From IMG/VR virus record IMGVR_UViG_2778261529_000002, positions 1 to 43,597 of that record: a stretch of 43,597 nucleotides of DNA, one strand, 5' to 3'. The notes below the pieces were generated by a model. It saw only the letters and a list, made by a program, of their open reading frames with translations. It did not search any database and was not told where the DNA came from. Made by a program: the position numbers and the translations under genes. The stretch comes from a virus (lineage: Duplodnaviria; Heunggongvirae; Uroviricota; Caudoviricetes). This document shows positions 3,860 to 5,265 of the stretch, piece after piece (position 1 is the first letter of the stretch; every line of letters begins with the position of its first letter).

Positions 3860-4128
3860 CTCTATCTCTTAAAAAAGATGTTAATAAGATGCTAACTATT
3901 GAAAGGCATAAATATATACTATTCCAACAAACGTTATTTTTAACAAATTTTTTCTCTCCGTTGACTTTTGCGAAAGCCTTGTCTGGCCTAAATTGCGCGG
4001 AAGCTACTTTTTCCTTCCTGAGTTATCCACAGAGTTATGCACTTGCATGTATAACCTATACACACTATCTTAATTCGCAAGACATTGATGTTGCGGTATT
4101 GAAGGTTCATTGGGTTAAAAATAGACAT

Positions 4129-4162
4129 TAAAAAGCCCAGTTGACTAGGCTGGGCTTTTTAA
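4129..4162. terminator. Bidirectional intrinsic terminator (stem agcccag/ctgggct, A-run upstream, T-run downstream)
   Basis: 7-bp perfect stem, 9-nt loop, flanked by AAAAA and TTTTT. Confidence 0.6.
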
Positions 4163-4460
4163 AAGGAAACAGAGTTTGCGGCTCTGTTCCTGAGCCATAA
4201 GTATCTGGCGACTGAATTAAGATTAACCGAATGTACTGGATTCATCAAGAAACGTTGAGTGGTCATACCAGGTAATAATGACCATTTACTAAACATCGTT
4301 GTTCTCAAAGAAGATTTAAGTCCAGGTTTTTGGTGACTCTAAAACCTTACCTTAACTCGAAATCGTGCCGTAAGTATCTGGCGACTACAGATATTGCAAC
4401 TGCAAAGGCAAGCCCAAAGGTATTTGCAGCTAGGCGCGATAAAACTAAGTGAGGCCTGTT

Positions 4461-4544
4461 ATGGTTAACTTACTGTTCAAAATCGTGCCGCCGATGTTCG
4501 CGATTATCAAAGCGATCATTGAGTACGTAAACCAGCGTCCATAA
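4461..4544 (+). CDS. Candidate small hydrophobic peptide (27 aa, MVNLLFKIVPPMFAIIKAIIEYVNQRP); type I toxin-like
   Basis: ATG with GAGG SD 8 nt upstream; followed by a 9-bp-stem hairpin; speculative. Confidence 0.25.
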   Translation: MVNLLFKIVPPMFAIIKAIIEYVNQRP

Positions 4545-4557
4545 CGCTAGTTGCTAC

Positions 4558-4582
4558 AGGCCCCATCAAGAGCATGGGGCCT
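4558..4582. terminator. Hairpin (aggccccat / atggggcct, 9-bp stem) between convergent genes
   Basis: Perfect 9-bp inverted repeat with 7-nt loop; weak T-run. Confidence 0.45.
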
Positions 4583-4599
4583 CTTTATCGTACTATTGC

Positions 4600-5265
4600 T
4601 TATTTTTTACGGACTGAGTTGTTCACTGCTCTGGCAATCTTCTCCCGCAATTGCTGCGTTCCGTGGTACTGAACCGCAATATCCCTCAACTCGTTCACCA
4701 GTTCTCGAATCTGGTGATCTTTAAGCTCATTATTTGGGTGATTGGTAACAACTCTGGTTAATTCACCCTTGTCTTTTGCTCTTACGTATGCAGCTCTTGT
4801 GCATTCGACCCATGTATTACCGCCTACATTAACTTCGTAGATTAGGCTGGACTTATCTGTCAATTCGGAACAAATACGGGCCGTGGTCTGGCAACTAGAG
4901 CATTCGCAGTTATCGCGGAAACCGTGGTCTACTGGCTTCGGTTTCACATCATCAACTTTTTCTACCCTATTGGAATTTAAATACTTCGAAGCCTTGCTAT
5001 GCCAATCGCTGGTTTTAGGATCTTGTCCATCCATCAAACGCCAGGCTTCAGCGATTAACTCATAACTAGTGACTGTAGCTTCCTGCGCATCACCAATAAG
5101 TCGTGTAATCTCTCTTTCAAGCCGACCGCCTAGCTCTGTTTTAGTGCAATGTTCTGACCAATCGCCAGCCTCAAGCAGCGCGAGAATGCTTAAAATATCG
5201 TCCAATAGAACGGTAGTATTATCGACTTCCTTCTGAAACTCACCGGCTACTGATTTATGCATCAT
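4600..5265 (-). CDS. Hypothetical early-left-operon protein (221 aa) with a Cys cluster (CECSSC)
   Basis: Long ORF; start ATG overlaps upstream stop (ATGA); no family recognised. Confidence 0.6.
   Translation of the reverse strand: MMHKSVAGEFQKEVDNTTVLLDDILSILALLEAGDWSEHCTKTELGGRLEREITRLIGDAQEATVTSYELIAEAWRLMDGQDPKTSDWHSKASKYLNSNRVEKVDDVKPKPVDHGFRDNCECSSCQTTARICSELTDKSSLIYEVNVGGNTWVECTRAAYVRAKDKGELTRVVTNHPNNELKDHQIRELVNELRDIAVQYHGTQQLREKIARAVNNSVRKK

Follow-up and report, generated by a model that had tools for sequence, protein, structure and literature searches.

Among the described type I toxin–antitoxin (TA) systems, ShoB/OhsC, TisB/IstR-1, Zor/Orz and DinQ/AgrB share one gene order, in which a divergent, non-overlapping small RNA (sRNA) is encoded 5′ of the toxin messenger RNA (mRNA) and pairs with it far upstream of the ribosome-binding site (RBS; PMC8594479). 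For dinQ, mutually exclusive leader structures have been reported, and the dql peptides are mostly unannotated (PMC5066626, Kristiansen et al. 2016). The DqlB–agrB pair of pOXA-48, which occupies an unannotated gap beside repA, was found by experiment to be toxic, sRNA-rescued and an addiction module, and dqlB has been reported on 3310 plasmids (PMC12365149). The same order, found also with its direct repeat at the dinQ–agrAB locus of K-12 and the agrB–dqlB locus of pOXA-48, was found here in a 43,597-nt stretch of DNA, the Caudoviricetes virus record IMGVR_UViG_2778261529_000002, referred to below as the window (all positions count along it). On comparison of sequences, nucleotides 4128–4590 of the window probably constitute a type I TA-like module of a new, undescribed and unannotated family. 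It is held with considerable confidence that this segment is an sRNA-controlled small-peptide gene, and a true TA pair is likely. The type I kind of system is well known; the family appears to be new.

The gap that holds the module (3860–4590) is, on the alignments, composed of two unrelated elements, a non-coding stretch of P1/P7 type (3860–4127) and the RNA/peptide module (4128–4590). They were treated as separate parts because distant homologues align to 4124–4540 only and because the left part resembles P1/P7. In RefSeq, zero annotated genes lie between the S24 peptidase gene and the next gene, both in a 99.9 %-identical chromosomal copy and in a 99.2 %-identical plasmid copy, and the module was left unannotated by every pipeline checked (RefSeq, Pfam, NCBIfam, PHROGs and Rfam). 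The original prediction had placed in this gap a type I TA or small-RNA locus next to an SOS promoter, with a bidirectional terminator, a repeat pair, a duplicated AAATCGTGCCG that has one copy inside an open reading frame (ORF), a 27-codon ORF preceded by a GAGG Shine–Dalgarno (SD) sequence and a 9-bp-stem hairpin after it. These elements were recovered at the positions given below; only the upstream copy of the repeat pair had to be moved by one base, from 4199–4214 to 4198–4213. As to the nature of the locus, the proposal held for 4128–4590 (sRNA promoter in 25/25 variants, duplex in 18/18, purifying selection on the peptide) and was given up for 3860–4127, which is a separate P1/P7 element. 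The proposed covariance search with homologous regions yielded sRNA stems, leader helices and an RNA duplex, all with compensatory changes; the assignment of the sRNA to the minus strand and of repeat copy 1 to its 5′ end goes beyond what had been predicted.

An 850-bp stretch was found in 152 of 5426 complete E. coli genomes, mostly on non-mobilisable plasmids of ∼110 kb and in phage Cyrano (SSU5-like phage-plasmids) and less often in chromosomes. Homologues were collected with a pattern derived from the leader hairpin at 4400–4429, which gave ∼50 further loci from genomes, IMG/VR and metagenomes and brought the set to a total of 44 unique modules. The genera represented are Escherichia, Citrobacter, Enterobacter, Kosakonia and Klebsiella; copies on plasmids of the last four are 66–83 % identical to the window and aligned over 4124–4540 only. 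Besides Citrobacter and Enterobacter plasmids, the carriers include MOBF conjugative plasmids, on which the module lies beside repA, an IncFIB Klebsiella plasmid, and IMG/VR and metagenome contigs. The module is often 1–2 kb or less from repA; the E. coli copies are far from replication genes.

On the minus strand, the module is predicted to encode an antitoxin-like sRNA of ∼84 nt (4213 to ∼4130) with a single-stranded 5′ seed, AGUCGCCAGAUACUUAUGGC, followed by stem-loop 1 (4165–4190, 10 bp) and a terminator. The latter is a bidirectional intrinsic terminator (4128–4162), whose 13-nt arms (4128–4140 and 4150–4162) are 100 % complementary and flanked by an A run and a T run; read on the minus strand, it terminates the sRNA. 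Its stem carries compensatory changes across 22 sRNA variants. The sRNA promoter (4220–4248, minus strand) comprises a −35 element TTGATG (4248–4243), a 17-nt spacer and a −10 element TAATCT (4225–4220). It scored below threshold in a simple consensus scan, and was kept in 25/25 distinct variants as TTG(A/T)(A/T)G, a spacer of exactly 17 nt and TAAGCT, TAATCT or TAAGAT, with diverging spacer letters. The sRNA 5′ end was placed at A4213 because of the position of the promoter and because the complementarity to the target ends at this point. An 88-nt form of the sRNA folded with −34 kcal/mol (z=−5.9), and the RNAalifold consensus of the 22 variants contained both helices with compensatory changes (eight pairs altered on both sides). 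A covariance model of the sRNA family (R1) gave a single strong site in the window, with 97.9 bits, and no second sRNA copy there. Structure and promoter of the sRNA are thus conserved by comparative evidence, which argues for an antisense sRNA gene that has a promoter and a terminator of its own, as is usual for type I TA loci.

The seed is one copy of a 16-nt exact repeat, TAAGTATCTGGCGACT, at 4198–4213 and 4371–4386, which lies within a 20-nt repeat (4194–4213 and 4367–4386) with one A/G difference. By our estimate, the chance expectation of such a 16-nt repeat is ∼1e-4 in 850 bp; it is not a chance feature. Copy 1 (4194–4213, minus strand) provides the sRNA seed, and copy 2 (4367–4386, plus strand), which lies in the leader of the mRNA 75 nt upstream of its start codon, is the sequence that the sRNA is predicted to target; the complementarity of the sRNA 5′ end to the leader hairpin extends over 20–25 nt. 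Copies 1 and 2 bore the matching variant in every one of the 44 modules, with at least nine co-varying seed variants (among them TAAGTATCTGGCGAC, AATGTATCTGGCGAC, TATGTGTCTGCCAGC, TTGTTAACCGGCGAC, TAAAACACTGGCGAC, GGCAGC, ATCCGG and GGCTAC). Columns 6–24 of the RNA duplex, a 19-bp core, were 100 % paired in 18/18 distinct variants; 16 of the 25 pairs were altered on both sides, and 0/500 shuffles attained the observed value. Where the two copies differed within the core (five sites, several lineages), the difference was always copy1-C/copy2-T or copy1-A/copy2-G, and none of the opposite direction was found there. With a minus-strand transcript of copy 1 and a plus-strand transcript of copy 2, such differences are G·U or U·G pairs; with the strands exchanged, they would be A·C mismatches. 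By comparative evidence the duplex thus co-varies in the correct orientation, and a pairing of the sRNA with the mRNA of a toxin candidate that is kept in evolution is a further trait of type I systems.

The leader of the peptide mRNA (plus strand) is structured (fold z-score −3.7). Its four helices taken together were paired in 93 % of cells (range 87–100 %), with ten pairs altered on both sides, so that the leader structure, too, is documented by comparison. A 5′ stem-loop (4324–4347; AGGUUUU/AAAACCU, with the conserved loop UUGGUGA) was 87 % paired with three compensatory pairs; the 5′ end of the mRNA is probably just upstream of it. The target hairpin (4373–4395) exposes the loop GCGACUA, which is complementary to the 5′ end of the sRNA, and was 92 % paired, again with three compensatory pairs. 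The second leader hairpin (4400–4429; CUGCAAA/UUUGCAG), the most conserved element and the anchor of the search, was 100 % paired, with a C-G to U-A exchange in five variants. Both are enclosed by a long-range helix (4362–4440) of AUCGUGCC (4362–4369) with GGCGCGAU (4433–4440), which was 94 % paired with three compensatory pairs. In an alternative helix (79 % paired), GGCGCGAU could pair with a second AUCGUGCC inside the ORF (4482–4489) and would form a stem around the SD/AUG hairpin. This second AUCGUGCC is part of the downstream copy of the repeat AAATCGTGCCG (4360–4370 and 4480–4490; 14 nt with one mismatch), which by itself could be due to chance (∼0.09 expected) and owes its role to the comparative data. 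The energies of the two leader conformers (−83.4 and −84.4 kcal/mol) are 1 kcal/mol apart, and with a blocked target only the closed one was obtained. Downstream of the ORF, an intrinsic terminator of the peptide mRNA (4558–4590, plus strand) consists of a nine-pair stem (4558–4582) and a T-rich tail; hairpins of differing sequence follow the ORF in the homologues, and a terminator was present in every variant.

Some observations concern the region 5′ of this leader. Candidate hexamer pairs for an mRNA promoter were rejected: none combined conservation with correct spacing and an A as the second base of the −10 element. Just 5′ of the mRNA stem-loop, most variants share a conserved CTGATT-N8-10-(T)GAATTT (window 4296–4320: GTTGTTCTCAAAGAAGATTTAAG), which does not fit sigma-70; it may serve as an unusual promoter or bind a regulator. 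Between the sRNA promoter and the mRNA leader, the spacer contains a hairpin GGTCAT...ATGACC (4261–4283), with a compensatory change in E. marmotae (GGTCGT...ACGACC); a different hairpin, GGAACC...GGTTCC, stands there in the Enterobacter copy. This hairpin may belong to the 5′ end of the mRNA or act as an insulator. In locus L018, the leader contains an additional hairpin insertion, CGTCTTAAAGGACG. Control of the module by LexA was rejected, as no LexA box with one mismatch or fewer was found at 3833–4700.

The small ORF (4461–4544, plus strand) encodes the 27-amino-acid peptide MVNLLFKIVPPMFAIIKAIIEYVNQRP, a predicted membrane toxin, and is preceded by an SD sequence, GAGG (4451–4454), 6 nt before the ATG. 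A GTG at 4449 was not accepted as the usual start codon, since in the homologue L041 it is not in frame. The ORF was intact in 41 of the 44 unique modules, the other three being two with the paralogous ORF A only and one truncated locus. The ratio of non-synonymous to synonymous polymorphism (pN/pS) was 0.37 for ORF B, the window-type peptide, and 0.20 for the paralogous upstream ORF A; judged by these comparative ratios, the peptide is under purifying selection. It is hydrophobic and amphipathic with conserved charged residues and prolines, and its best 19-residue hydropathy (1.85 in the window, 1.85–2.26 overall) lies in the range of known type I toxins. Relatives of MVNLLFKIVPPMFAIIKAIIEYVNQRP include MADLLIKIVPPIIVIVTAIIEYVNQRP, MVSLLLKILPPLVAIITTIIDYINKR and MGKLLKLIHPMIAIVLVIMDYIENR. 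Most modules outside E. coli (L004, L005, L007–L010, L018 and others) encode two paralogous peptides in tandem, A preceding B, and each ORF has an SD sequence of its own (ORF A: MQMLLLFLKLAHPVAVIIMTLLGYWKDR); the versions of E. coli, L041, L051 and L057 have B only, and L003 and L006 have A only. Exact look-up returned the peptides solely as “hypothetical” or “uncharacterized”, and a search of 1.8 billion representatives gave two relatives. A conserved gene for a small hydrophobic peptide is the third trait that the locus has in common with type I TA systems.

The module would work like DinQ/Dql–AgrB, of which it is not a demonstrated member; a deep relationship is possible. In the proposed mechanism, a constitutive minus-strand sRNA of ∼84 nt would act on a divergent plus-strand mRNA for the 27-residue amphipathic peptide. 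The single-stranded 5′ end of the sRNA would pair first with the loop of the target hairpin and then with its 5′ arm to give a duplex of 20–25 bp, which, by analogy with DinQ/AgrB, DqlB/agrB, TisB/IstR-1 and ZorO/OrzO, may keep the mRNA untranslated, serve as a substrate for RNase III, or both. For the mode of repression, which we infer from the leader structure, two options are conceivable: the sRNA may remove one of the two partners of GGCGCGAU and so leave the SD/AUG hairpin clamped, or it may occupy a ribosome standby region. If the element were lost or the sRNA decayed, the more stable mRNA would be translated and the peptide would damage the inner membrane; its release on loss would favour retention of the phage-plasmid, plasmid or prophage, a putative role in addiction.

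Several points weigh against this reading. The minus-strand transcript and its ends are deduced from sequence, as is the mRNA; translation of the ORF and toxicity of the peptide are likewise predictions. No convincing conserved sigma-70 promoter for the peptide mRNA was found across the homologues, either by eye or by script, so that the mRNA promoter is at present a postulated one. The computed accessibility of the SD sequence was 0.47–0.51 in every state, with the target blocked or not; because it barely shifts, a structural switch in the leader is put forward as a tentative, model-based suggestion. Since the arms of the duplex are direct repeats in the DNA, their co-variation alone could reflect gene conversion, and only the direction of the wobble pairs, seen in ∼5–9 events, separates the two. 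The peptide has a grand average of hydropathy (GRAVY) of 0.86, compared with 1.6–1.8 for DinQ, TisB and DqlB, and is thus less hydrophobic overall. Finally, the module is also found in prophage remnants of chromosomes, for which addiction is a less evident function.

The alternative that survives best is that the family is not new and the module is a very divergent member of DinQ/Dql–AgrB, “dql” genes having been described on enterobacterial plasmids and chromosomes. The architecture is identical: the sRNA is divergent and non-overlapping, and a part of the toxin leader recurs in the sRNA gene. The N-terminus of the peptide, MVNLL, is like the MINLL of DqlB; the mutually exclusive leader structures of dinQ and the mostly unannotated state of the dql peptides (PMC5066626) would also suit this interpretation. 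At the level of the peptide, however, the relationship was not seen. The peptides gave no match to Pfam, NCBIfam or PHROG (Pfam and the NCBIfam models for DinQ, NF041472, and DqlB, NF041473, being searched at E up to 10), although DinQ itself, as a positive control, matched both NF041472 and NF041473. The peptide profile scored <3 bits against DqlB, DinQ, TisB, ZorO, ShoB, LdrD, Fst and PepA1 (LdrD 2.7; PepA1 and Fst ≤0), TisB models matched none of the peptides, and the LELIR signature was absent from them. To the Fst/Ldr/PepA1 superfamily of toxins, the only resemblance found was a conserved helix proline and an aromatic–basic C-terminus. A profile of the leader, run with nhmmer with filters off against the K-12 dinQ and pOXA-48 (NC_019154) dqlB loci, gave nothing at dinQ and only noise (E=0.5) at dqlB, and a tblastn search of plasmids with DinQ found nothing. 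These comparisons covered the DinQ and DqlB sequences and models, the published DqlA sequences not being among them.

AgrB (RF02891) was the best Rfam match to the window sRNA, below threshold at 27.6 bits against a gathering score of 40; for nine related loci, no AgrB match was listed at E up to 1, and one OrzO-P and two RNAI matches were all below gathering. OrzO-P (RF02083) scored 34 bits against a gathering score of 60 in one homologue only, and RNAI 23–34 bits against 47; no Rfam family reached its gathering score with the window or the homologues. Because the names vary from locus to locus, these sub-threshold hits (AgrB, RNAI and OrzO-P) were treated as generic stem-loop and terminator matches. 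In the reverse direction, the R1 model gave weak matches to AgrA/AgrB of K-12 (∼18 bits) and to agrB of pOXA-48 (26.2 bits, E=4e-5), the latter being the top site of that plasmid segment; the similarity to pOXA-48 agrB is confined to the terminator hairpin. Apart from these weak matches in both directions, the tests gave no positive signal. A BLASTN search with the module yielded ∼100 plasmids, none of them IncL/M among the matches listed, as against the 3310 plasmids with dqlB. Membership in the DinQ/Dql–AgrB family is accordingly considered somewhat unlikely.

A second alternative retains the same RNA pair and dispenses with the toxin: the sRNA would tune a benign regulatory or phage-related small membrane protein, with no killing and no addiction. 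The data demonstrate base-pairing regulation and a conserved peptide, not toxicity, and the moderate hydrophobicity of the peptide with its conserved charges and prolines, as well as the persistence of the module in chromosomal prophage remnants, could be explained in this way. The layout, by contrast, is that of a type I system (a highly structured leader, a very short hydrophobic ORF that has its own terminator, and a divergent sRNA able to form a long perfect duplex), and the module moves as a unit among unrelated low-copy plasmids, often near repA, like the validated DqlB–agrB pair. A benign target is for these reasons thought distinctly unlikely.

We regard as very unlikely a more far-reaching version, in which the module is a previously unrecognised toxin family whose ancestral form has tandem A and B peptides acting together, and in which the SOS response may have come to govern it in phage-plasmids and prophages of E. 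coli. For such wiring, a LexA-controlled, promoter-like plus-strand site (3826–3853) that points at the shared terminator (4128–4162) would be used. After DNA damage, convergent transcription, or a read-through RNA with the sense copy 1, would interfere with or titrate the sRNA, and its titration would release the peptide at prophage induction.

It is barely credible that a plasmid or phage protein binds the repeats in the DNA as iterons or operators, or that the sRNA is a replication-control antisense RNA of the RNAI, CopA or Inc RNA type acting on a leader peptide: the frequent position 1–2 kb from repA, the sub-threshold RNAI matches and the fact that repeated protein sites also change together would suit this, but there are two copies only, 173 bp apart and one of them exactly at the 5′ end of a promoter and terminator unit, the wobble-compatible differences in one orientation would be meaningless for a DNA site, the sRNA does not overlap its target, the ORF is followed in every variant by a terminator and not by a rep gene, replication genes are distant from the E. 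coli copies, and RNAI stays below gathering.

The left part of the gap, 3860–4127, is a P1/P7-homologous non-coding segment, the counterpart of the stretch between humD/hot and upfN in P1/P7. BLAST gave window positions 3861–4047 an identity over the core of 87 % with P7 and 76 % with P1; many P1-like plasmids matched too. The P1 counterpart comes after humD (for an analogue of UmuD′), the LexA site of humD, lxr and hot; its annotation comprises upfO and upfN, two tiny ORFs, together with the late promoter LPhot and “two predicted DnaA boxes”. The humD-like S24 gene, the LexA box and tandem DnaA boxes are all kept in the window, whereas lxr and hot, present in P1/P7, are absent from it. In the DnaA-box scan, a perfect box, TTATCCACA, was found at 4023–4031 and a near-perfect one, TTATGCACT, 12 bp from it at 4035–4043. 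The segment had no homology in the four distant module copies tested (L003–L006), and the sRNA/peptide module was not found in P1 or P7 (no match to 4100–4620); 3860–4127 co-travels with the humD-like gene, not with the module.

The view of the original prediction that this part holds no convincing protein gene and that its one long ORF (3889–4131) has a non-coding composition was borne out: RefSeq has no gene here, and the 80-amino-acid ORF 3889–4131 was rejected as a gene, its frame being broken in four of the seven related copies compared (those 75–91 % identical), with no family match and a highly variable central part. A 46-amino-acid ORF on the minus strand (3988–4128) was likewise rejected, having no family match. 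The neighbouring SOS promoter that had been proposed corresponds to a perfect LexA box of the form CTGT-N8-ACAG, CTGTGTATATATACAG (3817–3832), between the S24/humD-like gene and the non-coding region; in the P1 annotation, the corresponding site is a LexA binding site that belongs to lxr and humD. It is context and lies outside the module, to which it is adjacent and nothing more, there being no box in the module itself. Promoter-like sites overlap the LexA box on both strands (window 3797–3859), on the minus strand toward the S24/humD-like gene and on the plus strand as TATACA-16-TATATT (3826–3853); a LexA-controlled plus-strand transcript from the latter would span ∼300 nt to the shared terminator and be convergent with the sRNA gene.

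At the position in P1 (L064, NC_005856) that is equivalent to the module (2220–2544), related features are seen: a strong minus-strand promoter, TTGACG-17-TATAGT, annotated PupfN, is followed after ∼100 nt by a hairpin GGGTCTG...CAGACCC, and an unannotated plus-strand ORF (2407–2544) encodes a hydrophobic sequence of 45 amino acids, MTAFFQFLSAFLDAPVISQILAIILIIVLILLLRSVKNGIMHWLT, on the strand opposite to upfM. P1 2220–2544 may be a different pair of a small RNA and a small membrane protein.

The gap is bounded by an incomplete, humD/UmuD-like S24 peptidase gene (3343–3798, minus strand) and by a convergent gene (4600–5265, minus strand), whose stop codon adjoins the terminator of the peptide mRNA. 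The C-terminal part of the S24/UmuD-like gene product is longer than, and different from, that of the 129-amino-acid plasmid version, and RefSeq flags the gene as an incomplete pseudogene in the identical chromosomal copy; because of this altered C-terminal part and the pseudogene flag, the window is taken to be a recombined prophage remnant. In the identical chromosomal copy, it is a prophage remnant adjoining torI/intS. Genes for tRNA-Asn (GTT) and tRNA-Thr (TGT) were seen within the prophage (window 16424–16579).

If the peptide is toxic and the sRNA protective, SSU5-like phage-plasmids, common elements of clinical and animal E. coli, would carry one more maintenance (addiction) module, and the same addiction module would be present on conjugative plasmids of Citrobacter, Enterobacter, Kosakonia and Klebsiella. 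Modules of this kind affect plasmid-curing strategies, as shown for DqlB–agrB of pOXA-48, as well as the stability of phage-plasmids, and may aid persistence or phage defence. In addition, the family is a natural data set of sRNA–target co-evolution, with at least nine seed variants and their matched targets, and should be useful for studying the specificity and cross-talk of antitoxin RNAs.

Of the known systems, DqlB–agrB offers a close parallel: both lie in an unannotated gap of a low-copy plasmid near repA, both have a divergent, non-overlapping sRNA that repeats a segment of the toxin leader (35 nt in pOXA-48, 20–25 nt in the module), and in both a hydrophobic peptide of ∼30 amino acids with its own SD sequence and terminator is combined with a similar sRNA terminator hairpin. 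They differ in the peptide (no LELIR, NF041473 unmatched) and in the leader, which has no detectable similarity, and the seeds differ as well. The relatives of the module often have two tandem paralogous peptide ORFs, and its hosts are mainly SSU5-like phage-plasmids, as opposed to IncL/M, IncI and IncX plasmids. DinQ/AgrB (AgrA) of K-12 likewise pairs a 27-amino-acid inner-membrane toxin with divergent sRNAs that repeat the toxin leader, the target lying ∼65–95 nt before the SD sequence; alternative leader structures set the opening of the SD sequence there and the sRNA shifts their balance, which the conformers of the module resemble. Here too, peptide and leader are dissimilar and Rfam AgrB stays below its gathering score, and dinQ has its own LexA box and two sRNA copies, whereas the module has no LexA box and one sRNA. 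In TisB/IstR-1 and ZorO/OrzO, the sRNA pairs far upstream of the RBS, and the primary transcript is probably translationally inert. The module differs from these two systems in having no LexA control and in not reaching the TisB and OrzO-P models. It shares with them a divergent sRNA, a long, structured 5′ untranslated region in which the pairing site is well upstream of the RBS, and a small amphipathic membrane toxin, here a predicted one, with charged residues (on TisB/IstR-1 and ZorO/OrzO, see also PMC5397157).

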